Below are positions 1-54,118 of a stretch of 64,000 nucleotides of DNA, piece after piece. The DNA lies in NCBI GenBank assembly GCA_965208575.1, contig CBDBOV010000002.1, positions 416,001 to 480,000 of the forward strand, given 5' to 3'. The stretch's first letter is position 1. Every line of letters begins with the position of its first letter. Made by a program: the position numbers and the translations under genes. The notes beneath the pieces are model-generated. The model worked only from the letters and a program-made list of their open reading frames with translations, was not told the origin of the DNA and made no database searches. Origin of the DNA: Spirochaetia bacterium. GTDB lineage: Bacteria > Spirochaetota > Spirochaetia > SZUA-6 > Bin103.

Positions 1-48
1 GCGGCCACCACGCTGCCCGAGATAGCAAGACAACTACAGGAGAAAGCG

Positions 49-1017: not shown

Positions 1018-1021
1018 CGCC

Positions 1022-1156
1022 GTGGATGACCTGTGGATCCAGTCGATGTTCGTGGGAGTGGCCGGCGCTTGGTTGGCCAGCGGCGATCTGCCGGTGGCGC
1101 TCGTCTTCGCCCTGGTTGTCGCGGTGAGCGTCGACGTGGGCCTCCAGGCCAACTGA
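1022..1156 (+). CDS. Small hydrophobic protein (44 aa), not in ORF track
   Basis: GTG..TGA encoding MDDLWIQSMFVGVAGAWLASGDLPVALVFALVVAVSVDVGLQAN; fills the gap between DUF3102 and the transposase. Confidence 0.4.
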   Translation: MDDLWIQSMFVGVAGAWLASGDLPVALVFALVVAVSVDVGLQAN

Positions 1157-1167
1157 AACGACCGGAC

Positions 1168-2859
1168 GTGCTCGAGGATCTGGCAGCGCGGATAAGCCGC
1201 GAACCATCTCGCCGTGCCGATCTCGTGCGCGAGCACGCGAGTTGCGTGGGCGCCCCGGCCTCGCGCGTGTACCGCCAACTCGCGGCGATGGGTCATGGGT
1301 CGGGGCGCCGGCGGCGCGCGGACGCGGGTGCCACCGCGGCCAGGACCGAGGACCTGGAGGTGCTGGCGTCGATGATGGCAACGGCGGTGCGGCGGACCGG
1401 CCAGGCGGTGATGTACATCCCGGACGCGCGCCAGATCCTGCAGGCGGCCGGACACGAGCTTGGCGGCCTGTCGGACGGGCAGCTCGCGCGCCTCCTGCGG
1501 TCGCAGGGGATCGACCTGGACACCCAACGGCGCGGCCAGGAGAGCCACGTGACGATCCGCACCGGCGGTCCGAACGACCTGCACCTGGTGGACCCGTCGA
1601 GCTGCCTTGTCTACTACCTGCCGCCGTCGTCGCGGACGCGCCGCCGGCAGCGGAATGTCGCCGACATCCACGGCGTGGAGCCATACAAGAACAAGCCCGG
1701 CCTGACCGGTCGCAAGGCGGATCTGCGGGTCTGGCGCTACGTCCTGGTCGACCACACGACCGGCGCGCTACGCGTCCGCTACTACCAGCAAGCGGGCGAG
1801 AACGCGGCGGCGCTGTGGGACTTCCTCTGCTACGCCTGGGACCGCCGCCACGCGTGGCATGGGCTGCCGAACTGGCTGTGGTGGGACAAGGGCAGCAACT
1901 ACGCGCCGATCCGCGCCGCCCTGGATTCGCTCGGCGTCGAGCACTACGCGCACGCGACGGGCAACAGCCGCGCGAAGGGCGCGGTCGAGCGGGCGCAACG
2001 GATTGTGGAAACGAAGTTCGAGTCGCGTCTGGCGCTGCAGCCGGTGTCCGGCGTGGAAGAGCTGAATGAGCGCGCCGAGCGGTGGTGTGACGCCTACAAC
2101 GCGAACGCGATCCCCGGCATGGACTGCCGGATGCACCGGCGCGGGATGCGGATCGTGAGGCTGGAAGCGTGGCAGCGCATCAGACCGGGTCAGCTCCGCA
2201 TGATGCCCGAAGACGGCCGCGACCTCGCGGTCTACCAGCCAGTCAAGCGCAAGGTGGCGGGCGACCTGACGATCAGCTACCGGCACCCGCGACTGAAGCA
2301 GCGCTGCTGGTACCGGGTGTCGCAGCTCGCAGGAGTCCGGGTCGGCGCGAAGGTGACGGTGCAACCGCTGCTGGTCGACGACCACGGCGCAATCCGCGTG
2401 CGTTGGAACTACCTCGACGAGGAGCAAGAGGAGCGCCTGCAGCCGATGGAGCTCGACGAGATGGGGTTGCCTGTCGATGGCCCCGCGCCGGGCGAGTTCC
2501 GGAGGCCGGAGCTGACCGAAGTCGAGCAGGCCGGCGAGCGGCTACGAGCGTTGGCCGGGCCGCGGCGGCCGGGACAGGCGGCGTTCGGCGGCAAGTACCG
2601 GGCGCTGGACGCGGCCGAGGGAGACGGGACGGTGATCCCGTTCCCGCGCCGCGGCGTGGAAGTGGAGACGAAGCCGGAGCCCGCGGGCGAGCTGCTCGGC
2701 TTGGCGGACGCGGCGCGGTACGTGCGGGCGCGACTGGGAGACGCCTGGTCACCGGACCTGCTGGCAGAAATCCGTCAGCGGTGGCCGGACGGCGCGTCCG
2801 CGGCGGCGCTGGATGGCTGGATGGCCAGCCTGAGCAATACCGAGGAGGGGACGGGATGA
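1168..2859 (+). CDS. Mu-like DDE transposase A
   Basis: Triad contexts LVDPSSCLVYYL, WDKGS, NSRAKGAVER. Start placed at GTG 1168; the ORF is open from 1033. Confidence 0.88.
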   Translation: MLEDLAARISREPSRRADLVREHASCVGAPASRVYRQLAAMGHGSGRRRRADAGATAARTEDLEVLASMMATAVRRTGQAVMYIPDARQILQAAGHELGGLSDGQLARLLRSQGIDLDTQRRGQESHVTIRTGGPNDLHLVDPSSCLVYYLPPSSRTRRRQRNVADIHGVEPYKNKPGLTGRKADLRVWRYVLVDHTTGALRVRYYQQAGENAAALWDFLCYAWDRRHAWHGLPNWLWWDKGSNYAPIRAALDSLGVEHYAHATGNSRAKGAVERAQRIVETKFESRLALQPVSGVEELNERAERWCDAYNANAIPGMDCRMHRRGMRIVRLEAWQRIRPGQLRMMPEDGRDLAVYQPVKRKVAGDLTISYRHPRLKQRCWYRVSQLAGVRVGAKVTVQPLLVDDHGAIRVRWNYLDEEQEERLQPMELDEMGLPVDGPAPGEFRRPELTEVEQAGERLRALAGPRRPGQAAFGGKYRALDAAEGDGTVIPFPRRGVEVETKPEPAGELLGLADAARYVRARLGDAWSPDLLAEIRQRWPDGASAAALDGWMASLSNTEEGTG

Positions 2860-3239
2860 CCGTGACTATCGGAGAAGGACTGAATGCCTATCAGTTCGTT
2901 ATCAGGGACGGCTGCCGACGGGTTCGGCCGTCGCCGCTGGCGAAGGCGCGGCGGAATGCCCTGGCGGCGCAGATGGATGCCTCTGGCCTGGAGCTGTGGG
3001 TGGGCCGCGGGATTTTCATTCTGCAGTGGGGTTACCCGCCGGTCGAGGTGAAGACGGTACAGGAGGCGTCGGACTGGTTCCAGGGGTGGTTGCGCGGAAA
3101 CGCCCGCGCCGACGGGTATAGGGCCTTCGTCGCCTACTGCCGCTCCGTCGGGACGACGCACGACGGGCGGGCGCTGCCGGCATGGGCCGAGCTCGAGCAG
3201 CGCCAGCGAGACGGCTGGGAGGCCGCGGCGCGGGCATGA
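2856..3239 (+). CDS. Phage hypothetical protein
   Basis: ATGA overlap with transposase stop; GGAGG SD. Confidence 0.6.
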   Translation: MTVTIGEGLNAYQFVIRDGCRRVRPSPLAKARRNALAAQMDASGLELWVGRGIFILQWGYPPVEVKTVQEASDWFQGWLRGNARADGYRAFVAYCRSVGTTHDGRALPAWAELEQRQRDGWEAAARA

Positions 3240-3559
3240 TGGAAGACATCGGCAACGAGAAGCTCTCCCTGACCGAGCGGCTGAACCTGATCGGCACTGC
3301 CGGCCACGTGGAGAAGGTGCGCATCTGGCCGCGCGACGCGGAACGGATAGTGAGCGAGGAGCGGTGCCGCGCCTGGCTGGCCGCTCTGCCGCCCCCGCTG
3401 TTCGGGCGCATCGTGAGGGCGGCCAACCTGGCGGAACATGACGCCTTCTCGTACTTCGACGCGCACGATCCCGGCCCATCGTTCGACGACATGGTGGCTA
3501 TCGGGCTGGCGGTCAAGGTCGCGCCGCTGGAGATAGCGCTTCCGAGGGTTGCGAAGTGA
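3236..3559 (+). CDS. Phage hypothetical protein
   Basis: ATGA overlap with previous gene. Confidence 0.55.
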   Translation: MMEDIGNEKLSLTERLNLIGTAGHVEKVRIWPRDAERIVSEERCRAWLAALPPPLFGRIVRAANLAEHDAFSYFDAHDPGPSFDDMVAIGLAVKVAPLEIALPRVAK

Positions 3560-3756
3560 GTGCGGCGCAACGGCTCGTCACCGTCATCACGGAGGACCAT
3601 CACTCGTTTCCCTGGGACGAGACGCGGAAACCGCCCGCTTCGGCCCGCTATCTGTTTGTCCACTCTGAAGAGCAGATGGCACCGGCCCCGCCGTGTATTG
3701 AGGGCGACCCCAAGTGGATGCGCAACGACGATCGCACCTTCCGCCGCGTTCGATGA
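3556..3756 (+). CDS. Phage hypothetical protein
   Basis: GTGA overlap with previous gene. Confidence 0.45.
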   Translation: MSAAQRLVTVITEDHHSFPWDETRKPPASARYLFVHSEEQMAPAPPCIEGDPKWMRNDDRTFRRVR

Positions 3757-3775
3757 TGCTGCCGAGGGTTGCGAG

Positions 3776-4030
3776 ATGAGCGCGGTGCGGTGGCCAGCGA
3801 CGGCCGAGGAGCTGAAGGATGCCGGTTACCGCGGGACCGGGCGAGGCCGCTGCAAGTCGTGCGGCCGCGCGATCATCTGGGCCAAGACGCCGCGCGGCGG
3901 CGACATGCCGATCGAGCAGCTCGCCGATGTCGAGGGCCAGCCGGACCGTTTCCAGTCGCACTTCGTGAGCTGCACGCGCGCCGAGTTTCATCGGCGCAGG
4001 AAGAAATCACTGGCAGGGAGGGGCAAGTGA
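3776..4030 (+). CDS. Small Cys/His (zinc-finger-like) phage protein
   Basis: CKSCGRAIIWAKT...MP...SHFVSC motif; stop overlaps the next start. Confidence 0.65.
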   Translation: MSAVRWPATAEELKDAGYRGTGRGRCKSCGRAIIWAKTPRGGDMPIEQLADVEGQPDRFQSHFVSCTRAEFHRRRKKSLAGRGK

Positions 4031-5097
4031 ATCGATTGAAGGGGGCCCTGGCTCGTGCCGGGCTGTCGTACGCGGCGCTGGCGTCGGAGATCGGCGTCAG
4101 CAAGTCGTCGGTCGTGGAGATAGTGCTGCGCGACCGCTTCCCGCGGGGACGGGAAGCGAAATTGCGCCGCGCCGTGGAGGTCGCGCTGAGTGAGCGCGGC
4201 GTGCACGACGATCCGTGGCCCGATGACCAGTCTACGCAACAGGAGGACGATGTAGACGTGAGGACACATTTGAGCTTGGCAGCGCGCGAGCAGTTCGGGC
4301 TGCGCGCTGATCCATGGGACGTACGGAGCGCCGCCGACGTGTGGCTCGGGCGCCGCTGGCGCTACGCCGCGCAGGCGATCGAAGACGCCGCGCAGACGGG
4401 CGGATTCCTGGCGGTGGTCGGCGAGTCGGGTTGCGGCAAGAGCACGCTGCGCCGCTACGTGCAGGACGCGCTACGCAGGCAGGAGCGTCCGGTGCGGGTG
4501 GTAGAGCCGGTGGCGATCGACAGGGGCCGGCTCACCGCGGCCTCCATCTGCGATGCGATTGTGGGAGACCTCTCGCAGGAAAGGCCACGGCTGACGCCGG
4601 AATGGAAGACCCGCCAAGTGCGGCGGATCCTCACCGAGTCGTCACGAGCCGGTTGCTCGAACGTGATGATACTCGAAGAGGCTCACGACCTGCACATCTC
4701 GACGCTGAAGTACTTGAAGCGCTTCTGGGAGCTGGAAGACGGATTCGAGCGGTTACTGGGGATCATCCTGCTGGCGCAGCCGGAAATCATGACCGTGCTA
4801 GACGAGCGTGCCTGGGCGGCACGCGAGGTGGTACGGCGGATCGAGGTGGTCGAGCTGGGCGCCCTCGATGAGGGCGATGACCTGGAGCAATTCCTGGCGG
4901 CTCGAATTGGAGACGGGGCGTTCGCGGCCGATGCGGCGGACGCCATTCGCGCGCGGCTGTCACGGCGCACGCGCGGCGCGGGGACGATGAGTACGGCGTG
5001 GCCGTTGGCGGTGGCCAACCTGGTGACCAGGTGTCTCAACCTGGCGGCCGAGCTCGGCCAGTCGCAGGTGACCGCCGACACGGTAGCCGCCGCGTAG
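4027..5097 (+). CDS. MuB-like/ExeA-type AAA ATPase with N-terminal HTH
   Basis: HTH LSYAALASEIGVSKSSV; Walker A GESGCGKS; Walker B VMILEEAH. Confidence 0.88.
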   Translation: MNRLKGALARAGLSYAALASEIGVSKSSVVEIVLRDRFPRGREAKLRRAVEVALSERGVHDDPWPDDQSTQQEDDVDVRTHLSLAAREQFGLRADPWDVRSAADVWLGRRWRYAAQAIEDAAQTGGFLAVVGESGCGKSTLRRYVQDALRRQERPVRVVEPVAIDRGRLTAASICDAIVGDLSQERPRLTPEWKTRQVRRILTESSRAGCSNVMILEEAHDLHISTLKYLKRFWELEDGFERLLGIILLAQPEIMTVLDERAWAAREVVRRIEVVELGALDEGDDLEQFLAARIGDGAFAADAADAIRARLSRRTRGAGTMSTAWPLAVANLVTRCLNLAAELGQSQVTADTVAAA

Positions 5098-5106
5098 GAG
5101 GAGAGC

Positions 5107-5340
5107 ATGGAAGGGAAACAAGTAGCGCGCAGGGGCTTTCCGCTCCTGACTGCCCTGGTGATCGTGCTGGCAATCCTGAAGCTGGCGGGGGTGGCGCCGT
5201 TCGCGCGGTGGTCCTGGTGGTGGGTGTTCGCGCCCTGGTGGGGTCCGTTCGCCGCGTTCGCCGGGATCCTGGTCATCATCGGAGTCGGCTGGATCGTCGC
5301 CGTCTTCGTCGACGTGCGTCCGAAGCGCAGGAGGTCATAG
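5107..5340 (+). CDS. Small phage membrane protein
   Basis: LKLAG...WSWWWVFAPWW motif; two hydrophobic segments; GGAG SD. Confidence 0.65.
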   Translation: MEGKQVARRGFPLLTALVIVLAILKLAGVAPFARWSWWWVFAPWWGPFAAFAGILVIIGVGWIVAVFVDVRPKRRRS

Positions 5341-5960
5341 TGGTTGAGACAGCGGTACAGATTCCGCCGGGGTATATCGAGGACTCGCAGGAGCGGCTGG
5401 TGCCGCTGAAGAACGTCAAGCAGATCGACCTGGACCGCGACAAGCTGGTGCGCCAGATGATCGACCAGGCGGCGACGCTGCACGAGTCGCTGGCGCAGTT
5501 CCGGGAGCTGGCGTTCGCCAGCGTCGACGGTTTCGTGGAGCGCGCGGCGAGCGAGTACGGTACCAGCATGGCCGGCGAGCACGGCGGAGTAACGCTGTCG
5601 AGCTACGACGGCAAGCTGCGGTTGCGCGTGTCGATCGCCGAGAAGCTTGAGTTCGACGAACGGCTGCAGGTAGCGCGCAAGCTGGTGAACGCCTGCCTGC
5701 AGCGGTGGGGCAGGAACGCCAAAACTGAGATCAAGACGGTGCTCCGGGCGGCATTCGAGACGGACAAGAGGGGCCAGCTCGACGCCAGGCGGATCCTGGG
5801 CCTGCGCAAGCTGGACATCGACGACGAGGAGTGGCAGCAGGCGATGCAGGCGATCTCGGACTCGGTCCGGGTGGCCCGCAACCGCCGCTACCTGAGCTTC
5901 CAGCGCCGCGGCGAGACGGGTAAGTACGAGACGATCTCGCTGAGCCTGTCCTCGGTATGA
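5340..5960 (+). CDS. DUF3164 family protein
   Basis: IPPGY..D...RLVP...VK.ID..RD; GGVTLSSYDGK; FDERLQVA; RILGLRKLDI.D.EW..AM.AI.DS. Confidence 0.85.
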   Translation: MVETAVQIPPGYIEDSQERLVPLKNVKQIDLDRDKLVRQMIDQAATLHESLAQFRELAFASVDGFVERAASEYGTSMAGEHGGVTLSSYDGKLRLRVSIAEKLEFDERLQVARKLVNACLQRWGRNAKTEIKTVLRAAFETDKRGQLDARRILGLRKLDIDDEEWQQAMQAISDSVRVARNRRYLSFQRRGETGKYETISLSLSSV

Positions 5961-6370
5961 CGGACCGGCGGCGCCGGCTGGCCACGATACACGCGGCGAA
6001 GCGCGATCTGGGGCTGACCGATCCCGAGTACCGCGCACTCCTGGCCTGCGCTGCAGGCGTGAGTTCTGCGGCCGACCTCGCCAACGACGCGCAGTACGGC
6101 GCGGTGATGGCGGCGTTCCGGTCCGCCGGCTGGCGCGGGCCGCGGCGCCGGCGCCTCACCGGCCAGATGGCCACCTGCTATGCGCTCTGGTGCCGGCTCC
6201 ACGAAGCCGGCGCCGTGCGCACTAGGTCCTACCGGTCGCTAATGTCCTGGATCGCCCGGCAGGTCGGGGTACAGGACGTTTATAGACAAGACCAGTTGCG
6301 TAGCTGTATAGAGCAGTTGAAGCTATGGCATCAGCGTGTGCAGTTGAAGCGGAAATCGCGGACGTCCTGA
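5957..6370 (+). CDS. Mu gp16/GemA-like regulatory protein (DUF1018)
   Basis: LATIHAAKRDLGL.D..YRALL...G..S; ALW..LH.AG.V; IEQLK.W. Confidence 0.8.
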   Translation: MTDRRRRLATIHAAKRDLGLTDPEYRALLACAAGVSSAADLANDAQYGAVMAAFRSAGWRGPRRRRLTGQMATCYALWCRLHEAGAVRTRSYRSLMSWIARQVGVQDVYRQDQLRSCIEQLKLWHQRVQLKRKSRTS

Positions 6371-6603
6371 CCGAGGTCCTCGGCGACGACGGACAGGCGA
6401 ATCGCGCCGCGGACGCGATCGTCGACTACTTCGCCGGCAACCAAGTGTACTTCCCCAAGCGCACCCAGCGGGACCGCGATGACCGCGACGCCAACATCGC
6501 GCGCGACGTGGAGGCGGGCGTGCCGACACCGGAGATCCTGCGCCGGTACCGGCTCAGCTACACCAACCTGAGGCGCATCCTCACGACCCGCAGCGTGTCC
6601 TGA
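6325..6603 (+). CDS. Mor/C family transcription activator
   Basis: FAGNQVYFPK...RD..I...EI.RRY.LS...LRRI. Confidence 0.8.
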   Translation: MASACAVEAEIADVLTEVLGDDGQANRAADAIVDYFAGNQVYFPKRTQRDRDDRDANIARDVEAGVPTPEILRRYRLSYTNLRRILTTRSVS

Positions 6604-6836
6604 CTGCCCTCCAGCGATGCCGGACATGTTCCGGGTACCAGCATAGATTCGGAGACCGGTCATGACCGCTTGTGACCGGGTTCACTTGGATTCTTGAGGT
6701 TGGGCCCGCCTATCAGCCTGCACCCAAACTGTTCCACCGTAGTCAACGGGTTCGGGCGGGACTCCTGCAGCGGTACCCGTACCCGTATCAGATCCGTCCC
6801 TTGCCGCCCTCCGGCGCGGCTCCGTACCTTCCCTAC

Positions 6837-7079
6837 ATGAGCCACCAGAAAGACGATGCGATCCGAGACCTCTTGAATCGAGCGTCCTGCCGCAAGTTCG
6901 AGGCCAGGCACGGCGACGCTCCGGTCTACTCGCTCGGTGAGGACGTTCTCGATGACTACCCGGAGGGATGGCTGGAAGCGAGGCTCTTTCTAGAAGAAGA
7001 ATTCCGATCCGAGATGGAAGCGGAGTATAGGCAAGCGATGCGAGAGGCTGCCCCAGCGGCTTGGGAGTTCGGCCCGTGA
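6837..7079 (+). CDS. Hypothetical acidic protein (moron-like)
   Basis: ATG 6837; stop overlaps next GTG. Confidence 0.45.
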   Translation: MSHQKDDAIRDLLNRASCRKFEARHGDAPVYSLGEDVLDDYPEGWLEARLFLEEEFRSEMEAEYRQAMREAAPAAWEFGP

Positions 7080-7309
7080 CGGCGGACCTTCGGAGGACCA
7101 TTCAGGCGGCGCTCAATTGCGAACGCCCGCGGCAGAACGTAACGCAGGACCCTGCCTTCTCTGCCGCCATAGACGCTCTGGTGGTTGCGACGGGAAGCCA
7201 TCGCCAGGAGATCATCTGGCGGGCGTTGCGGATGTACTTGCTCGCTTTCCTACATACCCACGAACCGGGGCTCGCTTCGAAAGAGGATTTAGCAACCAGA
7301 CGCGGCTGA
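7076..7309 (+). CDS. Putative ribbon-helix-helix DNA-binding protein
   Basis: RQNVTQDPAFSAAIDALVVATGSHRQEIIWRALRMYL fits a CopG/RHH pattern. Confidence 0.5.
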   Translation: MTADLRRTIQAALNCERPRQNVTQDPAFSAAIDALVVATGSHRQEIIWRALRMYLLAFLHTHEPGLASKEDLATRRG

Positions 7310-8206
7310 TGAGCGGTCGGCTACACACAGTTCGAGCCCGATCAGATGACCGATCCTGCACACGTAGGCACGAGTCTCACCGGGTGCGTAGGGAGCCACC
7401 GCAGGCCAAGTGTCGCAGGAAGCTGAACAGCGGTCGCGAGCCCGCATGACTCTTGCTGCCCCAGCGTTGTAGCTGGCAAGCGTCATGGCCATGCGCTGAA
7501 GGAGATCGTCGATCCGCCATTGCTCAAACAGCCAGCGGTCGTAGTAGATGCCGGCGGCGATGCTGTGACGCGGGTCCCAGGGGTCCGTCACGGACAGATG
7601 CCGGGCGATGTCCCCCCACGTCGCGGGCATGATCTGCATTAGTCCCTGGGCCCCGGCATGGCTGAGGGCGTCGGCTTGCAGCGCTGACTCGGCGATGCCT
7701 TGAGCCTTGAACCAGCGCCAGTCGAAGGCGGCGCCGAAGAAACGCCTGGAGTACTTGCGGAAGGTGCGGTCCCAGCGCCGCGGCCAGTAGCGATCGTCCA
7801 CAGGAGGATCGTCTGCCCAGAACGGAGCGGGCGCAGGTTTGGCCGGCTCCCGCACTACAGCACCCTGCCCTGCTGTAGCGTCTCCATCATCATCGGCAGG
7901 AGTCGGCTCGGCGCCGTCGTCGGTAGGCGCTGACTCGGGCGCGGCCTTGGGCTTGGTCGCGAGCATCGGCACGGGTGTGCGCGCGTGGCGGGTGAGATCG
8001 GCGGCGGCCGGGTCGGGCCTGGCAAAGACGACTATCTTGGCCATTGCGATCGCGGCCGTGCGCGGCGCAGGCTGCGGGGGCTCCAGTTCCTTGACCTCCG
8101 GGCGCGCAGGTGCTGTCCCCAAAGGCGGTCTCACGCCAGGCGCGGAAGATACGCAGGACTGCAGGATGGCCGCGGCTGCCAGGAGGGCGACAACGGCGGC
8201 CGCCAT
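7289..8206 (-). CDS. Lytic transglycosylase (SLT) with lipoprotein-like signal and Pro/Ala linker; putative endolysin
   Basis: C-terminal 305 aa of ORF 7289..9643: FKAQGIAES, AQGLMQIMPATW, ASYNAG, ETRAYV; N-terminus AAAVVALLAAAAILQSC. Confidence 0.85.
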   Translation of the reverse strand: MAAAVVALLAAAAILQSCVSSAPGVRPPLGTAPARPEVKELEPPQPAPRTAAIAMAKIVVFARPDPAAADLTRHARTPVPMLATKPKAAPESAPTDDGAEPTPADDDGDATAGQGAVVREPAKPAPAPFWADDPPVDDRYWPRRWDRTFRKYSRRFFGAAFDWRWFKAQGIAESALQADALSHAGAQGLMQIMPATWGDIARHLSVTDPWDPRHSIAAGIYYDRWLFEQWRIDDLLQRMAMTLASYNAGAARVMRARDRCSASCDTWPAVAPYAPGETRAYVCRIGHLIGLELCVADRSSAASGC

Positions 8207-8211
8207 GCCGC

Positions 8212-8436
8212 TCAGTTGAGTGCCATGCCGATCACCAGGCCGACGGCGATGCCGATGCCGACGAACATGCCGCCGACGACGGTGCCCACGGCGCGGTTGT
8301 TGGCCTCGAGTTCCGAGCAGGTGTCGAAGGTGGTGAGGCGGTCGAGCGCCTTGTAGGAGAGGAGCATCAGGGCGATGGCGCCGGCGCCGCCGGCCGCTGC
8401 GTAGGCGAGATTGAGGGCGACGATGGCGATGTTCAT
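8212..8436 (-). CDS. DUF350-like two-TM protein (possible holin)
   Basis: D.LT.FD...EL...N.AVG.V.GG.F.G; directly upstream of the SLT gene. Confidence 0.7.
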   Translation of the reverse strand: MNIAIVALNLAYAAAGGAGAIALMLLSYKALDRLTTFDTCSELEANNRAVGTVVGGMFVGIGIAVGLVIGMALN

Positions 8437-8488: not shown

Positions 8489-8569
8489 GGGAGCGGACGC
8501 ACCGGTGCCGCATCGTCTGCTGCCGTGGGAACGCGGTTTGCGCTGAGTTGCAGTGACGAGCGGCCGGAG

Positions 8570-9505
8570 ATGTACGGCTACGCCGTGTGCGCGGAGTTGC
8601 CCGCCGGGGACGATCCGCCGGAGTGGCTGCCGCTGATCCCGGCCGGTGAGCGCTTCCAGGGGCGTGACGGACGTACGTTCCGCTCGCCTGGTGCGGCGCA
8701 GATCCTCACGGCCCAGCGCGCCAACAGCGCCATGATCCCGGTCGACATCAATCACTCGGAGGTCGCGAAGGCGCCGCAAGGTGAGCCCTCGCCCGCCGTC
8801 GGATGGATCGAGGCGTTCGAGGAACGCAACGGAGCGGTGTGGGGCCGGGTGTCCTGGAACACCGAGGGCGCCGAGCTGATCGCCCGGAAGGCATACCGCT
8901 ACTACTCGCCCACGTTTCTGATCGACCGGAACGCCGAGGTGCGGATCGTGCACTCGGTGGGCCTGGTCAACAAGCCCAACCTGCTGGTACCGGCACTGAA
9001 CCGGGAGGAACCCATGGATCTGAAGAAGATCGCGGAGGCGCTCGGCCTGAGCGCGAACGCCACGGAGGCGGAGATCCTCGCCGCCATCGCCAAGCGCCCG
9101 GCACCGAACGCGTCCGGCGAGATCGAGATGGTCCCGAAGGCGGACTACGACGTGGTGATGAACCGCGCCGAGACGGCGGAGCAGAAGCTTGCCGAGCGCG
9201 ACGAGAGCGACCTCAAGGCCGAGGCCAGCGCGGCCGTCGACGGCGCCGTCAAGAACCGCAAGATCGCGCCGGCGAGCAAGGGCTACTACCTGTCGCTGTG
9301 CACCACGCGGGAGGGCCTCGACAACTTCAAGAAGTTCGCGGAGTCGGCGCCGAAGGTGATCGACGACCAGGCCGCGGCGCCGGAGGGGAAGGCGCCGGAC
9401 GGCGGGACGAGGCTGTCGCCGGAGGCCGAAGAGGTAGCGCGTCAGATGAACGTCGACGAGGTGATCGCAAACGCCGAGTCCCGCAAGGGCAACAAGAAGG
9501 AGTAG
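8570..9505 (+). CDS. Mu gpI-like prohead protease with internal scaffold (gpZ-like) start at 9014
   Basis: PEWLPLIPAG.F.GRDGR; IPVDINH; PAVGWI; YRYYSPTF; GLVNKPNL. In-frame GGAGG-N5-ATG at 9014 (MDLKKIAEALGL). Confidence 0.88.
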   Translation: MYGYAVCAELPAGDDPPEWLPLIPAGERFQGRDGRTFRSPGAAQILTAQRANSAMIPVDINHSEVAKAPQGEPSPAVGWIEAFEERNGAVWGRVSWNTEGAELIARKAYRYYSPTFLIDRNAEVRIVHSVGLVNKPNLLVPALNREEPMDLKKIAEALGLSANATEAEILAAIAKRPAPNASGEIEMVPKADYDVVMNRAETAEQKLAERDESDLKAEASAAVDGAVKNRKIAPASKGYYLSLCTTREGLDNFKKFAESAPKVIDDQAAAPEGKAPDGGTRLSPEAEEVARQMNVDEVIANAESRKGNKKE

Positions 9506-9509
9506 GTCC

Positions 9510-10691
9510 GTGATCGTAAACAACGCAACCCTCGAGGGGCTGAGGACCACCTTCAGCAAGCTGTTCCAGGCCGGCATCAAGTCGGCGACATCGCGGTGGC
9601 AGCGCGTTGCGATGCGCGTACCCTCGGGCTCCAAGAACAACACCTACGGGTGGCTGCAGCGGGCGCCGCAGATGCGCGAGTGGGCGAGCGGCACCAAGCG
9701 GATGCTGCGGGGCGTGGTCGAGAAGCTGTACCAGCTCCCCAACAAGAAGTGGGAGACGACCATCGACGTCGAGCGGGAAGACATCGAAGACGACAACCTC
9801 GGCGTGTACACGCCGCTCGTCATGATGGCCGGCCAGGAGACGATGGATCACGTCGACCGCCACGTCTTCGACACCCTGCGCCTCGCCCACGCCATCACCT
9901 GCCACGATGGGCAGCCGTACTTCTCGGCCGCGCATCCGCTCGCGGCCAACGTGGACGGGACCGGCGCGTCGCGCAACGTCAGCAACATGCTGCTCGGAGC
10001 ACCGACCGCGGCCAAGCGCACGGCTGGCGCGACTGCAGCAGACGCGGTCAGCACGGCGGGCACGGTCACGGGCTACGCCAAGTACAAGGTACGGTTCACG
10101 ACGGCCGGAGCGATCGGCGCGGCCAAGTTCAAGCTGTCGATCAACGGCGGCGACGAGGGCGACGAGATCGCCGCCGCCGCCGCCGGATACGCGATCCCGG
10201 GCACGGGCATCGCCATCAAGTTGAAGGCGGGCACTGAATTCGTCGTCGACGACGCCTGGGAGTTCGAGGGGCGTTCCCCCTGGTTCCTGCTGCACACCAT
10301 GGCGGCCGTGAAGCCGCTGATCTACCAGGACCGCATGGCGCCGCAGATCGAGAGCATCACCAACACCCAGCAGGACACGGTCTTCATGGAGGACAAGTTC
10401 CTGATCGGCGCCCGCGCCCGGCGCGCGTTCGGGGTCGGCTTCTGGCAGATGGCCGCGATGAGTACTCGCGAGCTCAACGAGGACAACTTCGACGAGCTGT
10501 TCCAGGTGGTGCAGGAGCAGTGCTGGGACGGCGGCGATCCGTGCGGCTTCACCCCGGACATGCTGGTATGCGGCCCGGCCCTGCGCTCGGCGAGCAACCA
10601 GACCATCAAGCAGCAGTACGGCCCGAACGGCGAGTCGAACCCCAACTACTTGGCGGTCGATGTCGAGTGCACGCCCTGGCTGAAGCGGTAG
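9510..10691 (+). CDS. Mu gpT-like major capsid protein with ~90-aa insertion
   Basis: NTYGWL...P.MREW; NKKWETTIDV.REDIEDDNLGVY; CHDGQPYFS..HP; PWFL....VKPLIYQ.R; G.GFWQMA. Confidence 0.9.
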   Translation: MIVNNATLEGLRTTFSKLFQAGIKSATSRWQRVAMRVPSGSKNNTYGWLQRAPQMREWASGTKRMLRGVVEKLYQLPNKKWETTIDVEREDIEDDNLGVYTPLVMMAGQETMDHVDRHVFDTLRLAHAITCHDGQPYFSAAHPLAANVDGTGASRNVSNMLLGAPTAAKRTAGATAADAVSTAGTVTGYAKYKVRFTTAGAIGAAKFKLSINGGDEGDEIAAAAAGYAIPGTGIAIKLKAGTEFVVDDAWEFEGRSPWFLLHTMAAVKPLIYQDRMAPQIESITNTQQDTVFMEDKFLIGARARRAFGVGFWQMAAMSTRELNEDNFDELFQVVQEQCWDGGDPCGFTPDMLVCGPALRSASNQTIKQQYGPNGESNPNYLAVDVECTPWLKR

Positions 10692-10723: not shown

Positions 10724-11155
10724 GTGCGCTTTCTTTCCGTAGACGAGTATCTCGACCGGGCCGGCTCCCAGGTGGTCCCGAAGATCAAGTCGGGACCCAA
10801 CGCGGGACAGGTCGACGTTGCACGGATTCTCGCCGCGATCGAGGATGCGTGCGGCACGGTCCGCGCCTACCTGGCCAAGGACCTGCTGGCGCCGGACGGC
10901 GAGGATGCAGCGAGAGAGGCCATTCCGAAGCGCATCCTGGAGGCGCTCCCCGGCATCGTGTTCCAGCTCGCCCGGTTTCAACTCGCGGACGGGAGCACCG
11001 GCAGCGAGAGCGTAATCGTGAAGGGCTACAACGCTGCAATGGACACGCTCGAGACCCTGCGGGATGAGCCGGACCGGGCGACGGTGGCGGCCGCGATTGT
11101 CGGGGGTCCGGGAACCTGGATCGCGGGTGAGGCGGCCGCGGGAGACGACGTGTAG
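10724..11155 (+). CDS. Mu gp36-like (DUF1320) head-tail connector
   Basis: VD.ARI.AAIEDA...V.AYL...LARFQL....Y..AM..LE; position after capsid. Confidence 0.7.
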   Translation: MRFLSVDEYLDRAGSQVVPKIKSGPNAGQVDVARILAAIEDACGTVRAYLAKDLLAPDGEDAAREAIPKRILEALPGIVFQLARFQLADGSTGSESVIVKGYNAAMDTLETLRDEPDRATVAAAIVGGPGTWIAGEAAAGDDV

Positions 11156-11617
11156 ATGGCCGGTGCTGCAATCGAACTCGACCTGAGCGAAGTGATCGCG
11201 ATGAACCGCGCGATCGCGGCCAGCCTGAAGCAGTTGGGAGCTGCCGATCAGTCACAACTGCTGACGGACCTCGGCGTCGAAATCGAAGGCCAGACCCAGG
11301 AACGCTTCGCCGCGCAACAGGACCCGGACGGCAAGCCCTGGCAGCCGTGGTCGGAGAGCTATGCGGCGCGCCGCGCCGGCGACGGGGGAAGCCTCCTTCG
11401 GCGGCGCGGCGACCTGCAGAGCGACCTTTCCCACCAAGTCGAAGGCGAGGAGATTGAAACCGGGTCGCGCAAGGTATACGCGGCGCCGCACCAGTGGGGC
11501 TTGCCGGAGGCCGGCATTCCGCAGCGCCGGTACCTGGGCTTCGCACCGCGGGACACCGACGAGCTCGGGACGCTCGTGGCGGACTTCGTGCGCGAGCATG
11601 GCGGGCTGGTAGCGTGA
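11156..11617 (+). CDS. Phage virion morphogenesis protein (Mu gpG-like)
   Basis: T.ERF..QQDPDG.PW.P.S; L...G.L; YAA.HQWG; IPQRRYLG. Confidence 0.85.
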   Translation: MAGAAIELDLSEVIAMNRAIAASLKQLGAADQSQLLTDLGVEIEGQTQERFAAQQDPDGKPWQPWSESYAARRAGDGGSLLRRRGDLQSDLSHQVEGEEIETGSRKVYAAPHQWGLPEAGIPQRRYLGFAPRDTDELGTLVADFVREHGGLVA

Positions 11618-12723
11618 CGCTCACCGATGCGCGCCGCCGCGCCAAGAAGTCCGTCGAGGCTGCCGTGGGACACGTCGAAGTGATCGAGCTTGACGGCGTT
11701 CTCGACGCCAAGGAAATCGCGCGGCAGGCGATAGAGCCGCCAGCGGTGCAGGTGTCCACGATGGGCCGCGGCGAGGACGGGATCCGCATTGTCGCCTACG
11801 TGGTGACGCGGACCGAGATGCCCTCCCCGCCTGACGCGCTGCAACTGCTCGACAAGGTCGAGGAGTCGCTCCGCACGCTGCCGGGCGCCGGCCGCGCGAT
11901 CCTCGACGTGCGCACCCAGTGCCTGTACGACTCGCACGCGATGAAGGCAGGGTCGGTTGCACTCTGGGCGGTCACCACGACGTGGCCGGACCTGGCGGCG
12001 CAGGTTGACGCAAGCACCGGGGACGGCAGTTTGATCGCGGACGCCAACGCGTTCCTTGCGCCAGCGGTAGACGGCGCCCTCGGCCTCGCCGACGTGGACG
12101 ACAGCGATGCGGACGCGGTCGCGGACCGCACGCGCCGCCGCGGCATGACGGAGCTGGACCGGCGCCGCCTGGCGCTGGAGGGGCCGCTCCCGTACGCGGA
12201 GGTGCGCCACGGCGAGCCGCCGGCGATCGCGGGCGTGCGCAGCGTCTCCGGCGTGGGCGCGATCGAACGCGTGGGCGCCGGCTCCGGCACCGCCAGGCAG
12301 CGCGGCAACGTGCGGCCGGGGCGTCCGCTCGGTCCGGTGGCCGCGGCGCCGGGCTCGAACTCCTGGCGCCAGCAGGTACACGGCATGCGGGTGTGGCCGG
12401 CGACGGTAACCCTGTGGGCCGGCACGGACGCGCAGGTCGACGCCGCGCTGACCGAGTTGCTGCGCCTGATTCCGCGGCGATGGCGCTGGAGCGACCAGGA
12501 GAACCGGGTGACCGTGGGCCGGGTGGTGGGAGCGACCTACGTACCGGAACGCGGCGCCCACATGGCGAGCGCGGAGATCACGCTGCGCGCGGTCAACCTG
12601 ATCGGCGAGCGCGGCGAGGTGCGTACCGTGACGGTTGGCGTGCGCGTGTCGCCGGACGACGCCGACCCGCTCGAAGGGCACACGCCGCCGATCGAGCGCG
12701 ACCGATACAGGAGGAGGGCGTAG
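11614..12723 (+). CDS. Neck/tail-completion protein: Mu gp37-like N-domain fused to a second domain
   Basis: AYVVT...LY......G.VALWAV motif in the first ~125 aa; 369 aa in total. Confidence 0.55.
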   Translation: MTLTDARRRAKKSVEAAVGHVEVIELDGVLDAKEIARQAIEPPAVQVSTMGRGEDGIRIVAYVVTRTEMPSPPDALQLLDKVEESLRTLPGAGRAILDVRTQCLYDSHAMKAGSVALWAVTTTWPDLAAQVDASTGDGSLIADANAFLAPAVDGALGLADVDDSDADAVADRTRRRGMTELDRRRLALEGPLPYAEVRHGEPPAIAGVRSVSGVGAIERVGAGSGTARQRGNVRPGRPLGPVAAAPGSNSWRQQVHGMRVWPATVTLWAGTDAQVDAALTELLRLIPRRWRWSDQENRVTVGRVVGATYVPERGAHMASAEITLRAVNLIGERGEVRTVTVGVRVSPDDADPLEGHTPPIERDRYRRRA

Positions 12724-12903
12724 ATGTCAGGGAAGAAGGCCGAGCCGCGGAAGCAGGCGGTACGGGACCTCGCGAAGGGGATCGATCCCGTGGTCTACGC
12801 GGGCGTGAGAACGGCGAACGGCTGGGAGGGCAGCGAGGCCATGACGCCGGCCACGTTCGAGCGCGCGGTAGGAGCGTGGCTGCAGAGAGGCTCCGATGTC
12901 TGA
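12724..12903 (+). CDS. Small pre-sheath protein (59 aa), not in ORF track
   Basis: GGAGG SD; MSGKKAEPRKQ...VYAGV...GW...MT...FE.AV..WL; overlaps sheath start. Confidence 0.55.
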   Translation: MSGKKAEPRKQAVRDLAKGIDPVVYAGVRTANGWEGSEAMTPATFERAVGAWLQRGSDV

Positions 12904-14419
12904 TCTCGCACAAGTAGACATCCGGACCAGGGACGGCGGCCTCGGCCGCCGCGGGCGCCAGGCGCGCGGCCTCTTCGCCGCCGTCGGCATCGGCGGCAAA
13001 CCTGCCGATCAACTGGTCGCGACCGTCTCCGGCAGCGATGTGACCGTGGTGCAGCGTGGCAACATCCTGCCGCTGAGCAATCCGCGAGCCGCCGCCGATC
13101 AGCTGGTCGCGGCGCCCCTGCGGGACCTGCTGGTCGCCGCGCTGAGCGTGGCAGGCACGGTATGCTACACCCTGTCGATCAAGGGCAACGTCGGCGTGCC
13201 GACCGGCCCGGCCGCGGCAACGCTGGCGCTGGCCGCGCCCACCAATACCGCCGCGCTCGCCACCGCTGCGCTCGTCGGCACCGTCCGTACGCTGGCGCTG
13301 CGGATCACCGCCACCAATTCGGCGGACAACGTGGTCGCCGGCGCCAAGGTGGTGCCGGTGGTCAACGGCGCCGACGGCGCGGAGATCACGCTCGCCGGCG
13401 CCGCCCGAGTCGCGGGCATTCTCCTGGACTTCGGCGGATCGGGCGTGGCCGTGCAGCTCACCATGGCCGACGGCACCGCCCGCCTGACCGTGGGCGACGT
13501 GTGGACGGTCCCGATCACGGCGAGCAACGCCGCCATCCTGGCGGCCATCGACCGCCTGCTGGAGAGCCGCTACCGCTACGAGTGGATCGACGTCGCCGGC
13601 GTGAGCGGCGAGTCGCTGTGGGCCGCCCTCTCGCTGAAGGGCACCACGGCCCAGAACACCTACAAGCGGTACATCGGCTTCCGCGGCCAGGCGCCGGGGC
13701 CGAACGCCGGTGAGTCGACCGCCGACTACGTCACGCGCATCACCGGCGCGGGCGTGCGGGGCATGACCGAAGACGGCCGCCTGCAGATCTACACGCACGT
13801 GCGCGCCACCGATCCGATCACCGGGGTGACCGCGCCGCGCGGGCTGCTGGAGATCGGAAGCGGGTGGAGCGCGCTGCGCCGGCCGCACGAGCCGGTGGAC
13901 GCGGTCGAGAACGGCCCGCTGCCGGGCGTCGTGTCCCTGTACCCGGAGGACCTGACCACCGCGCAGGTTGCCGCTCTGGCCACCGCCGGCTACACGGTCG
14001 CCCGCACCTATCCAGGGGAGAATGGCGTGTACATCAACGAGGGGCGCACCCTCGCGGCCGCCTCGAGCGACTTCAAGACCGAGGAGCGCCGCCGGGTGAT
14101 TGATCGTATCTGCCGCCTCGTCTACGAGCGGCAGTGGCGGTTCCTCAACTCCACGGCCCAGGTCAACCCGGTTACCGGCGAGCTGGCGAACATCCGCTCG
14201 TTCCGCCGCGCGTCCAACCAGCCGGTTGCGCAGATGGCCAGGCGCAACGAGATCGTGGCCGGCCAAGTCACGATCCCGCCCCTGCAGGACATCCTGGCCA
14301 CCGAGGAGATCGAGAGCCAGATCGACATCGTTCCGCTCGGGAAGCTGCGCAAGATCTCGACCACGATCAGCTTCCGCAACCCGCTGCTCGACGCCCCTGA
14401 CGTCGAGGCGAGCGCATAG
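12896..14419 (+). CDS. Contractile tail sheath (DUF2586-like)
   Basis: V.I...DGGLG N-terminus; L..AGY...RTYPG..GVY...G.TL....SDF...E.RRV.D; I.I.PLG..R.I. Confidence 0.82.
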   Translation: MSDLAQVDIRTRDGGLGRRGRQARGLFAAVGIGGKPADQLVATVSGSDVTVVQRGNILPLSNPRAAADQLVAAPLRDLLVAALSVAGTVCYTLSIKGNVGVPTGPAAATLALAAPTNTAALATAALVGTVRTLALRITATNSADNVVAGAKVVPVVNGADGAEITLAGAARVAGILLDFGGSGVAVQLTMADGTARLTVGDVWTVPITASNAAILAAIDRLLESRYRYEWIDVAGVSGESLWAALSLKGTTAQNTYKRYIGFRGQAPGPNAGESTADYVTRITGAGVRGMTEDGRLQIYTHVRATDPITGVTAPRGLLEIGSGWSALRRPHEPVDAVENGPLPGVVSLYPEDLTTAQVAALATAGYTVARTYPGENGVYINEGRTLAAASSDFKTEERRRVIDRICRLVYERQWRFLNSTAQVNPVTGELANIRSFRRASNQPVAQMARRNEIVAGQVTIPPLQDILATEEIESQIDIVPLGKLRKISTTISFRNPLLDAPDVEASA

Positions 14420-15237: not shown

Positions 15238-15407
15238 GCCTGCAGGCGCAGCGCCTGTACTGCCGGAAGTGGCTGGGTGTCGACATCTCGGACATGGTCA
15301 TGGCCGATGTCCGGCGACTGGTCGATGACGCGCTGGCAATGCGCAGGCTGGACGTGGTGGCCACGGCGGAAGCGATCGTGATGGCGTTCGGCGGCGATAC
15401 GAAGTAA
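15192..15407 (+). other. Programmed -1 frameshift site CCCTTTC and GT-like extension
   Basis: In-frame C CCT TTC at 15192-15198; the -1 frame is open for 71 codons to TAA 15405-15407, which overlaps the tape measure ATG. Confidence 0.8.
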
Positions 15408-18310
15408 TGGCGAACTACGAGGCGTCCGTCACCCTACGATTCCACGACCTGTTCTCCAGCGGCATGTCGTCCGCGGCGAACAGGATCTCCTCAGCGTCAG
15501 ACCGCATATCCGGAAGCTCCGCCGGGATCGCGGCGAGCAGCTCGGCGGCCGCCGGCAGAATGGACGCCGCCGCCGACCGCATGGGCGCCAGCTACCGCGG
15601 GGCAGCGAACACCATCGACGCCGCCTCGGGAGCGATCGGCGACGACCTCGGCGCCGCGGGCCGGGCCGCGGACGCCGCCGGCGATCGCATCGCCAGCGCC
15701 GGCGACCGCGCCGCGCGGGCATGGCGTGCCGTGGACTTCGCGGCCGATCTCGGCGCCGCCTCCGCCGAGGTGTCGCAGCTCGCCGACCAGGTCGGGCGCA
15801 TGGCGGACGCCAACATCGAGGTGACGGCCGGTGTCCAGGGCGCCACCTCGGATCTGCGCACCGTGATCACCGACGACGGCGCCATCGCGGCCATCGTTGC
15901 CGCCGCGGAGCGCACGGCCGCGCAGCAATCGGACGCCGGCCGGCTGGCCGCGGTCTCGGTGGACGAGTTCCTGCAGGCAGCCTTCGCGAGCGTGAGTTCG
16001 GGCGTCGGCGTGGATGCCGGCATTGCGCCGCAGGCGGCCATCGCGCTCGCGGACCAGGCCGCGCTGCTCGGCCTCGCCGGCCAGACCGACGCCGCCACCG
16101 CCGCCAAGAACCTGGCCGTTGCGTTCAACGTGTTCGGCGACCAGGAGGCGATCGCCGCGGCCGCGGATCCGCTGGCCGCGGCGCGTGCCGAGATGGAGCG
16201 CATGAGCGACGTGCTGGCCACGACGCAGGATTCGTTCGCCTTCACCGGCGGCCTGGAGCAGCTCACGTCGGGCTTCAAGAACGTCGCCGGGCTGGCGGCA
16301 GCCTTCGAGGTGCCGCTTGAACAGACCTCGGCGATGATCGGCGTGCTCAACAGCATGGGTATCGAGGGGCCGGAAGCGGGCACCGCGCTCAAGTCGGCGC
16401 TGGCTCAGCTCGCCCCCGCCGCGGAGAAGCTGGGCTTCACGCTTGCCGAGACGGCTTCGGGCGGGTTGGATGCGATCGGCACTCTGCGCGGGGTCGCGGC
16501 TGCCGGTTTCTCGGCGACGGAGCTGACCAAGGCGTTCGGTACCGAGGCAGGTCCCGCCGTCATGCACCTCACGCGCCAGCTGGCGATGCTCGAAGGCGGA
16601 TACGAGCGCATCAGGGCAGGCGCGGGCACCACGATGGACAACGCCCGCATCGCGGCCGAGACCTACGATCAGTCCGTCGCCCAGCTCGGAGCCTCCTTCG
16701 AGCTGCTGCAGTCGCGGATCGGCGCCGGCGGGCTGGCGGTGCGCCAGGCGGGGGTCGATGCCGCCACGTTCCTGGTCACCGTGGGCAACCGCCTGGCCGA
16801 GTTCAGTCCGGCCCTGGCGTCCGCCGCGGGCGGCATGCTGGAGATCGCGGCCGCCGGCGGCCGGGGCCTCGCCGGGGTGCTGGAGATCTCCACCGGCGTC
16901 CTGTCGCTGACCACCCTGCTCGGCAAGGACGGCCCGCTCCTGCCGGCGATCGGCAGCATCGGCGCCAGGGCAGCGTCGATCATCCCTGCCATCGCGACAT
17001 GGACGGCGTCGATGTGGGCGGCCGCGGCAGCTCACATCGCCGTGGCATGGCCGATCTACGCGATCGTGGCGGGCGTTGCTCTGCTCGCCGCAGGGGCCTA
17101 CCTGGTCGTCAAGCACTGGGACCAAGTGAGCGCGTTCTTCGCCGGGCTGTGGAGCGCGGTTTCCGGGGCGTTCCGCTCCGCGTTCGAGCGGATCGGGGCG
17201 TTCCTCGACGGCATCCGCGGGCCGGCCCTGGCGGCCATGGTGGTGTTCATGCCTATCGTGGGGATCCCGCTGCTGATCCGGCGCCACTGGGGCGCGCTCA
17301 GCACGTTCTTCGCGGGCGTGTGGAGCTCGGTGACGGGCTCGTTCGCCGCGGCGTGGGGGCGCATACGGGGGTTGCTGGAGGGGCCGTTCAACTCGATCGT
17401 GGGGTTCTTCGGCGACCTGTGGGGGTCGGTGGCGGGGATCTGGCGCGGCGCCTGGGACTCGTTCGCGGCCCTGGTGCGTAGCGGCCTGGAGCGCGTGGTT
17501 CGCCTGTTCTCGTTCTTCTGGACCATCAGGGACTTCTTCCGCGGTGTGTGGGACGCGATCACCGAGGTGTTCCGGGGCGCCTGGGACCGCATCAACAACC
17601 TGTTCGGCCCCGATACTCTGCTCGGCAGGATATTCGGGACCATGGCCGCGGATCCGGCGGCCGCGCAGGACCAAGTCAACAGCGCCATGGGCGAGACTCT
17701 GTCCGTCGTCCCTCCCTGGCTGGCCCAGTCGGACGCCGAGCGCGGGCCGCTGTCCAGGCTTACCGCCGCCGGTCGCGCCATCCCGGCGACCATCGCCGCG
17801 GGCATCATCGCCGGCGCGCCGGTGCTTGCGGCCGCGTTGCCGCCGGCGCTTGGGGAGCTGACGCCCTTGCTGCTGCCGGCGGCCGCCGCCCCACCCGACC
17901 TGGAAGCCGGATACGGCCCGGTAGCGCCGCCCCTGCTGCCCGCGGCCGGCGCACTGGACCTGGAAGCCGGCTTTGGCCCGGTAGCGCCGCCGCTGCTGCC
18001 CGCGGCCGCCGCACTGGACCTGGAAGCCGGCTTTGGCCCGGTGGCGCCGCCCCTGCTGCCCGCGCTCGGCCCGCTCGAGCTGGGAGCTGACGCCGCCGCG
18101 CCGGCCCGTCGCGTGTCCGGGGCAGCGCCGCCCGGCGCCGGCGACCTCGTCGCCGCCATGCGTGAGCTCGCCGCGGAGCTGCGTGCGGCCCGCGCCGGCG
18201 GCAAGGGGCGCGGGATCAGTGTCGAGAGCCTGGAGATCCGGCTCGACGAATCAGGTGACCTGTTCCGGTCGCTGGAGGGGCTGGCCGAGGTGGCCGGAGA
18301 GTCCTTGTGA
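15407..18310 (+). CDS. Tail tape measure protein
   Basis: 967 aa, Ala-rich; G..G.EAGTALK, FGTEAG core motifs; W/F-periodic repeats (FFAGLWSAV). Confidence 0.92.
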   Translation: MANYEASVTLRFHDLFSSGMSSAANRISSASDRISGSSAGIAASSSAAAGRMDAAADRMGASYRGAANTIDAASGAIGDDLGAAGRAADAAGDRIASAGDRAARAWRAVDFAADLGAASAEVSQLADQVGRMADANIEVTAGVQGATSDLRTVITDDGAIAAIVAAAERTAAQQSDAGRLAAVSVDEFLQAAFASVSSGVGVDAGIAPQAAIALADQAALLGLAGQTDAATAAKNLAVAFNVFGDQEAIAAAADPLAAARAEMERMSDVLATTQDSFAFTGGLEQLTSGFKNVAGLAAAFEVPLEQTSAMIGVLNSMGIEGPEAGTALKSALAQLAPAAEKLGFTLAETASGGLDAIGTLRGVAAAGFSATELTKAFGTEAGPAVMHLTRQLAMLEGGYERIRAGAGTTMDNARIAAETYDQSVAQLGASFELLQSRIGAGGLAVRQAGVDAATFLVTVGNRLAEFSPALASAAGGMLEIAAAGGRGLAGVLEISTGVLSLTTLLGKDGPLLPAIGSIGARAASIIPAIATWTASMWAAAAAHIAVAWPIYAIVAGVALLAAGAYLVVKHWDQVSAFFAGLWSAVSGAFRSAFERIGAFLDGIRGPALAAMVVFMPIVGIPLLIRRHWGALSTFFAGVWSSVTGSFAAAWGRIRGLLEGPFNSIVGFFGDLWGSVAGIWRGAWDSFAALVRSGLERVVRLFSFFWTIRDFFRGVWDAITEVFRGAWDRINNLFGPDTLLGRIFGTMAADPAAAQDQVNSAMGETLSVVPPWLAQSDAERGPLSRLTAAGRAIPATIAAGIIAGAPVLAAALPPALGELTPLLLPAAAAPPDLEAGYGPVAPPLLPAAGALDLEAGFGPVAPPLLPAAAALDLEAGFGPVAPPLLPALGPLELGADAAAPARRVSGAAPPGAGDLVAAMRELAAELRAARAGGKGRGISVESLEIRLDESGDLFRSLEGLAEVAGESL
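17897..18066 (+). repeat. 60-bp tandem repeat (~3 copies) in tape measure C-terminus
   Basis: gacctggaagccgg...gcgccgcc.ctgctgcccgcg at 17897, 17957, 18017 (DLEAG[YF]GPVAPPLLPAA.AL). Confidence 0.9.
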
Positions 18311-53911: not shown

Positions 53912-53949
53912 GAAACCTCCGCTACGACTGAGTGGTGCGGCCAAGGCGT

Positions 53950-54118
53950 GTGTAGCAGGTATTCTCCTGAACGGGATGATCGCCACCCGGCCGCGCCGGC
54001 TGACAACCTCACCAATGACTACGCCACCCGCCCCGGGGCCAAGCTCTTGAACGGGTTCGCAGAACGTAACGCCAGTGACGCGCCGGCCTACTTTCGCGCT
54101 CCACCCAGAACTCTGCCC
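53950..54118 (-). ncRNA. Putative bridge RNA (two guide loops) of the IS110
   Basis: TATAGT -10 at 54121-54126 (minus). Two parallel loops GTCA(C/T)TGG...CCCGTTCA(A/G)GAG carry heptamers matching the two element junctions. Confidence 0.65.

Follow-up and report, generated by a model that had tools for sequence, protein, structure and literature searches.

A predicted all-beta accessory domain within the major capsid protein of a Mu-like prophage and its homologues on tail sheaths

Results

Gene content of the prophage

The window, by which the whole 64-kb stretch of DNA analysed here is meant, carries a Mu-like transposable prophage in its first ~28 kb, followed by host genes. The features on which the analysis bears are listed below in their order along the sequence.

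1033–2859, transposase (phrog_310)
3769–5097, MuB-like AAA protein
Early region, genes for DUF3164, GemA and Mor, with Mor at 6325–6603
8525–9505, plus strand, Mu-like protease/scaffold (gpI; PF10123, 134.1 bits; phrog_328 head maturation protease)
9510–10691, plus strand, Mu-like gpT major capsid protein, 393 aa (PF10124, 279.9 bits; phrog_371 major head protein)
9996–10271, plus strand, in-frame insert of 92 aa in the capsid protein (residues 163–254), one copy of an unnamed accessory domain of ~90 residues with a predicted all-beta fold
Between the capsid and sheath genes, gp36-like adaptor, then tail completion gene
12896–14419, plus strand, DUF2586 tail sheath, 507 aa (PF10758, 141.1 bits; phrog_907)
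13202–13522, plus strand, diverged copy of the same domain in the N-terminal half of the sheath (residues 103–209; 32.2 bits with the family HMM)
Between the sheath and tape measure genes, tube-like gene (phrog_4579), then DUF6848 and chaperone genes
15407–18310, tape measure gene; baseplate genes also belong to the tail module
From ~28.5 kb, host genes (alanine racemase, BacA, FtsK and others)

The capsid gene begins at 9510, directly 3' of the PF10123 protease/scaffold gene, which ends at 9505. The match of PF10758 to the sheath protein extends over two stretches and lies far above the cut-off of 26.4 bits, the match to phrog_907 (tail sheath) has an E-value of 1.5e-38, the synteny of the tail module agrees with the assignment, and phage homologues are annotated as tail sheaths. 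Genes for terminase, portal protein and Mu gpF were not found in the element (1–28400) by scans with Pfam, PHROGs and NCBIfam, a search that was not exhaustive: three large ORFs, at 11494–12723, 21598–22773 and 22788–24335, matched no packaging family, and each of these was scanned with two of the three collections, 22788–24335 with PHROGs and NCBIfam and 11494–12723 with Pfam and PHROGs.

Some further features of the element should be noted. The gap between the Mor gene and the protease/scaffold gene is at most 1.9 kb, and a related Spirochaetia element (locus L001, positions 1–8000) has the identical order of MuB, DUF3164 and then protease; no terminase, portal or gpF gene was detected there either. 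Between the early and the head genes lies a gene for an SLT lytic transglycosylase (PF01464; phrog_669 endolysin; 7289–8436, minus strand), accompanied by an ORF for a membrane-like protein of 74 aa that is also on the opposite strand, and the two may form an inverted lysis cassette. The right end of the element (24332–28363, plus strand) encodes a protein of 1343 aa with Calx-beta and SWM_repeat matches and a weak match to an autotransporter barrel, which is probably a fibre or an adhesin and in which the domain shared by capsid and sheath is absent. Between its capsid and sheath genes, the L001 element has an ORF of 703 aa with a C-terminal FN3 domain (10944–13055 of that locus, plus strand); at the matching position the window has an ORF of 409 aa that matches no family. 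An IS110-family transposase gene is found among the host genes (52526–53986, minus strand).

An insert at a single site of the capsid protein

The match of PF10124 to the capsid protein (cut-off 20.1 bits) is split by the insert into residues 8–164 and ~256–391. The protein aligns with the solved gpT capsids of JBD30 (8rkc_A, E 8.2e-73) and Mu (9jod_A, E 4.4e-57), and by this homology the product of 9510–10691 is predicted to adopt the HK97 fold. In the JBD30 alignment, residues 2–164 correspond to chain residues 3–163 and residues 256–391 to chain residues 168–303, so that ~91 residues of the capsid protein stand in place of four residues in JBD30. An alignment of 19 gpT proteins contains 12 long ones, all with the insert at one and the same site, and seven short ones without it, in which the SN motif is joined directly to PW[YF]LL. 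The preliminary description of this DNA had claimed that the insert replaces a short linker of gpT proteins, and both the JBD30 alignment and the seven insert-less proteins bear this out; the peptide strings that it quoted lie in frame at 9996–10271. The envelope of the family HMM, which was built from both the capsid and the sheath contexts, spans residues 163–256 of P0001, a protein 98% identical to the capsid protein of the window. From the JBD30 alignment, together with domain descriptions in passages of PMC11445458, the insertion point would be the loop that leads from the first axial-domain segment behind the spine helix to the PW[YF]LL strand.

An AlphaFold2 (AF2) model of the insert, calculated with five-residue flanks and 13 aligned sequences, has a pLDDT of 91.2, a pTM of 0.81, eight strands and no helix, and thus the all-beta nature proposed for the domain agrees with its prediction. 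In 10 of 11 comparisons, the insert has diverged faster than the core of the capsid protein. In the remaining one, with P0002, the relation is the opposite, the insert being 67% and the whole protein 53% identical to the window's, and lineages may here have exchanged the insert.

These properties bear on the possibility that the insert is a neutral passenger, tolerated in a permissive loop with no role of its own and decaying in a possibly defective prophage. Such a fate would fit the lack of packaging genes in the scans mentioned above, as well as the lack of a conserved polar site in the domain family and the lack, in both copies of the window, of an Asp-box-like motif that 39 of the 87 family copies have. 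However, the insert is intact and in frame in 12 clusters of proteins, it is predicted to fold with high confidence, its GC3 of 0.88 is near the values of 0.94 and 0.96 in the capsid flanks, and one genome harbours a related element twice, in copies 98% identical to each other, which is suggestive of recent activity. A mere passenger is thus regarded as improbable.

Homology of the insert with a segment of tail sheaths

The sheath strings quoted in the preliminary description were located in the 507-aa DUF2586 protein, and the proposed relationship between this segment and the capsid insert was examined at several levels of sensitivity. BLASTP of the insert against the window's own sheath detected nothing in the claimed register, its best alignment (E 1.4) involving other regions. 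A Smith-Waterman alignment recovered the register with a score of 63, compared with 35.5 +/- 6.5 for shuffled sequences (z 4.3), and none of 1000 composition-preserving shuffles reached this score. Profiles were then compared, one made from the insert as cut from 12 capsids and the other from the matching segment of 18 sheath homologues; hhalign aligned the two over 64 columns with a probability of 97.6 and an E-value of 3.4e-12, the kind of significant profile match on which the proposed homology had been made to depend.

The searches with individual HMMs agree with this result in both directions. With the sheath-domain HMM, all 12 insert-bearing capsids have E-values of at most 0.032 (P0001 scores 32.9 bits) and no insert-less capsid falls below an E-value of 1. 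With the capsid-insert HMM, the sheath P0137 scores 53.3 bits, P0134 35.8 bits and five further sheaths 26.8–31.9 bits, compared with 5.9 bits for the window's own sheath. An HMM built from both contexts scores 83.7 bits with the capsid protein of the window and 32.2 bits with its sheath. A blind phmmer search with the 92-aa insert against 1.84 billion representative proteins yielded 35 matches at E <= 1e-3; two are gpT capsids, and the other 33 include 21 DUF2586 sheaths, matched in their N-terminal half. Two proteins of this search, P0150 and P0156, are not matched by the family HMM and were treated as compositional matches.

Judged by these profiles, a single domain of ~90 residues is represented by two homologous copies, the capsid insert and the segment of the sheath. 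A chance or compositional resemblance of two segments without common ancestry might be suspected, since both are rich in Ala and Gly and the composition-adjusted BLASTP search found nothing in register, but this explanation is hardly credible in view of the profile-profile probability, the blind retrieval of DUF2586 sheaths at the correct position, the shuffling result and the structural matches that models of the two segments have in common.

Predicted fold of the domain

A Foldseek search of the PDB with the insert model gave no match at E <= 1e-3; the best TM-scores, which can serve only as leads, were 0.50–0.54 for the flagellar junction proteins FlgL/FlgK and 0.46 for the sheath Lin1278. 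In the ESM Atlas the best score was 0.78, below a meaningful level. Five matches at E <= 1e-3 were obtained in BFVD. The best of these is A0A411CVZ4, a phage protein of 472 aa (TMq 0.79, 28% identity). Meiothermus phage MMP17 has a tail sheath of likewise 472 aa, which the insert HMM matches at residues 94–182 with 45.6 bits, and, from the identical length alone, A0A411CVZ4 is probably this sheath. Another of the BFVD matches is named as an SbsA Ig-like domain-containing protein (TMq 0.74, E 6.8e-4).

The AF2 model of the sheath segment has a mean pLDDT of 74, with 82–92 in the core. Its best BFVD match has an E-value of 0.03 and is not significant; nevertheless, all five matches of the insert recur within its top 16. 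A structural kinship of the two segments had been part of the original proposal, and the recurrence speaks for it, although the matches of the sheath model themselves fall short of significance, so that the models would lend partial support to the homology.

No PDB sequence was matched by the sheath profile, and no solved relative of DUF2586 proteins was found by sequence search; a literature search for DUF2586 likewise yielded no paper. The domain segment is missing from the sheath homologue P0139, which has 371 aa, and thus the domain is an accessory insertion in the sheath too.

Contexts and conserved positions of the domain family

No Pfam family covers the domain. The Ig-like, FN3 and BIG families of Pfam do not match either the insert or the sheath domain at E <= 10, and no Pfam lectin or carbohydrate-binding module (CBM) family matches the domain. 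CBM_35 was considered as a candidate and rejected (14.5 bits against a cut-off of 28, E 0.045; seen in one of 12 family members at E <= 1). The family HMM finds the domain in the following contexts.

DUF2586 sheaths: one or two copies
The gpT capsid clade: one copy
P0160 and P0170, proteins of 380–383 aa from another major-head family (phrog_247/544; weak PF05065): one copy, at residues ~222–317
P0148 and P0161, tail-spike-like proteins (phrog_2234): domain present
P0140, P0141 and P0164, with no other family: two to five copies

On this distribution, the domain is a widespread and promiscuous virion module. The conserved positions of the family consensus are mostly Gly, Ala, aromatic and aliphatic residues, and no conserved polar site is seen. 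An Asp-box-like pattern, [ST]x[DN]xGxx[WYF], occurs in the 39 family copies mentioned above, is lacking from all 13 gpT inserts and from the window's sheath copy. The Pfam BNR model scores below its cut-off on P0140 and P0151.

Rarity and history of the insert in gpT capsids

The search for gpT proteins gave 352 matches, of which 120 were listed. Among these 120, the insert is present in 12 full-length proteins and one fragment; P0084 is long but lacks it, and the other 106 have 297–310 aa. Of 313 phage records that contain a gpT homologue, not one has a homologue covering 80% of the query, and a tblastn search of 50,697 phage records with the insert gave no match at E <= 1. The view that the insert is unusual among gpT capsids is therefore well founded, with 13 of the 120 clusters among the matches listed and none of the 313 phage records.

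A tree of 69 capsid sequences was calculated from an alignment from which the insert columns had been removed; it contains the window and P0002–P0070 except P0005, which is a fragment, whereas P0001, as near-identical, and P0071–P0120 are not included. All 12 rows that carry the insert fall into one clade (SH-aLRT 99), which is nested among insert-less rows and requires a single change. Since the insert marks a single clade, whose capsids are 43–53% identical, it was probably gained once in gpT capsids.

The tree of the domain itself has 85 columns and is mostly unresolved, and the donor of the capsid insert was not recovered. The inserts of P0160 and P0170 are grouped with second-copy sheath domains (support 86–93, unstarred), which hints at a separate acquisition in that head family. 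The sheath copy of the window is found in a separate long-branch clade (97*), which makes a recent copy within the genome unlikely. That the capsid insert was recently duplicated from the sheath gene of the same element would be suggested by the location of the two copies 3 kb apart in one element and by the Smith-Waterman z-score of 4.3. Three observations oppose such a duplication, namely the position of the sheath copy in the domain tree, its low score with the capsid-insert HMM (5.9 bits against 27–53 for other sheaths) and the occurrence of the insert throughout a clade of considerably diverged capsids, and the duplication is accordingly rated very unlikely. Thus, the homology of capsid and sheath claimed in the preliminary description stands, but the special link to the element's own sheath does not, as the domain is widespread and the own sheath copy is among its most diverged relatives.

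A scan of genomes detected nine gpT loci, only two of which (L001 and L002) have the insert. Both are on OZ251573.1, at 1.07 Mb and 1.49 Mb, in one Spirochaetia MAG; they are 98.4–98.7% identical over ~16.8 kb, with a GC content of 72%, and this near-identity suggests recent transposition. Their DUF2586 sheath also has the domain, so that, including the window, co-occurrence on capsid and sheath is seen in two independent elements. It should be noted that none of the seven insert-less loci has a DUF2586 sheath within 8 kb, and hence these numbers do not amount to a real statistic of co-occurrence.

Discussion

With somewhat better than even confidence, the insert would be a built-in decoration or adhesion module, its outward display and its adhesiveness both being presumed. 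According to this proposal, tailed phages would place a mobile all-beta accessory domain of ~90 residues on exposed virion proteins, and a copy would have entered a capsid loop in one ancestor, from which a small Mu-like gpT clade descends. The domain would fold independently and project outward from each capsid subunit and each sheath subunit, and the whole particle would thereby be densely coated with a single module as a built-in decoration. Through such a coat, the particle could adhere weakly and multivalently to surface polymers belonging to the host or its matrix, as has been proposed for phage Ig-like domains. Extra sheath domains are described as lying away from the tube, with adhesion or stability as proposed roles, in passages of PMC9230969, and domain III of the Mu sheath is described as outward-pointing in passages of PMC11915804. 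An accessory and exposed character would also be in accordance with the presence of the domain on the tail spikes P0148 and P0161 and on the head proteins P0160 and P0170.

Two results argue against adhesion: the conserved Gly, Ala, aromatic and aliphatic residues provide no ligand-binding signal, and no lectin, CBM or Ig family of Pfam was matched, CBM_35 remaining below its threshold. A more specific version of the proposal, in which the whole particle, head and contractile tail alike, is coated by one adhesion module of an undescribed family that is related to Asp-box hairpin domains and binds a glycan of the host or its matrix, is considered rather doubtful.

Alternatively, the insert might stabilize the lattice by contacting neighbouring subunits or capsomers, as a built-in cement or folding nucleus, and the sheath copy might brace the sheath lattice. 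This alternative has a precedent, because the I-domain within P22's coat protein, a non-conserved domain inserted in the A-domain, forms inter-subunit salt bridges according to passages of PMC9965877, and stabilization is among the roles proposed for extra sheath domains in the excerpts of PMC9230969. Furthermore, the capsid gene is followed by the gp36-like gene with no decoration-protein gene in between, and JBD30 has a separate minor capsid protein according to passages of PMC11445458. On the other side, the Mu capsid is described as stable without a cement protein, and it has no insert (passages of PMC11915804), so that gpT shells need neither; a lattice-specific contact would leave the copies on tail spikes and in tandem arrays unexplained; the insert evolves faster than the core; and no P22 coat chain is found among the 40 PDB fold matches listed (ranks 1–48). 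A stabilizing insert is thus possible, but not probable. Adhesion is favoured over a role as cement because of the presence of the domain on spikes and in tandem arrays, its faster evolution in comparison to the core, and the stability of the Mu shell without cement or insert.

That virions carry promiscuous accessory domains and HK97 capsids carry insertion domains is already established, and because this general principle is known, the finding is incremental rather than surprising. The insert in gpT capsids is a rare and unnamed case of the reuse of small surface domains by phages on different parts of the virion. Nevertheless, it points to a domain family that has no Pfam model and no PDB structure match and that recurs on sheaths, in two capsid families and on tail spikes, and it indicates that the compact shell of Mu-like gpT proteins tolerates a folded insert of ~90 residues at one loop. 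The tolerated loop could be useful for display engineering and for the interpretation of capsid diversity in metagenomes. Should the module prove to bind a surface polymer, accessory adhesion domains would extend beyond Ig-like folds. If, in addition, the whole particle is coated, the domain would represent a new class of virion 'velcro' that is moved among sheath, capsid and spike genes to retune sticking, and its presence in the capsid loop would identify a site of gpT shells at which display is tolerated.

Among known systems, the I-domain of P22 would offer a close parallel, as an autonomous beta-rich domain placed in the axial (A) portion of a capsid protein with the HK97 fold, past the spine helix and before the return toward the P-domain; it comprises residues 222–345, between segments of the A-domain, in passages of PMC9965877. 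The two differ in that there is no sequence match between them and, as stated, no P22 coat chain among the fold matches listed, that the I-domain has ~124 residues compared with ~90 here, and that the family of the present domain is also found on sheaths and tail spikes.

The extra outer domains of tail sheaths, such as domain III of Mu gp39 and those treated by Evseev et al. (2022), resemble the window's sheath copy, which is inserted in the N-terminal half of the conserved core and is missing in a shorter homologue. Passages of PMC9230969 and PMC11915804 describe the extra domains as beta-rich, outward-facing and dispensable for contraction. In contrast to them, the present family also occurs inside a capsid protein, and the excerpts of these two papers make no mention of such an occurrence.

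The Ig-like domains of phages (Hoc and the BIG2, FN3 and I-set types) are small beta-sandwich modules that are exchanged among capsid, tail and fibre proteins, and a weak binding of surface carbohydrates has been proposed for them (quoted in passages of PMC9230969). Unlike these, the insert is internal and not terminal, and many members of its family (39 of 87) have an Asp-box-like hairpin.

The last comparison is with P0084, a gpT homologue of 395 aa that has a C-terminal cadherin-like beta-sandwich (PF12733) in place of an internal insert. Here too, an accessory domain, in this case a beta-sandwich, has been added to a Mu-like gpT capsid; its place, however, is the C-terminus, its family is another one, and it falls outside the architecture of the insert-bearing clade. 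The P0084 domain is a second, independent way to decorate the shell of the gpT family.
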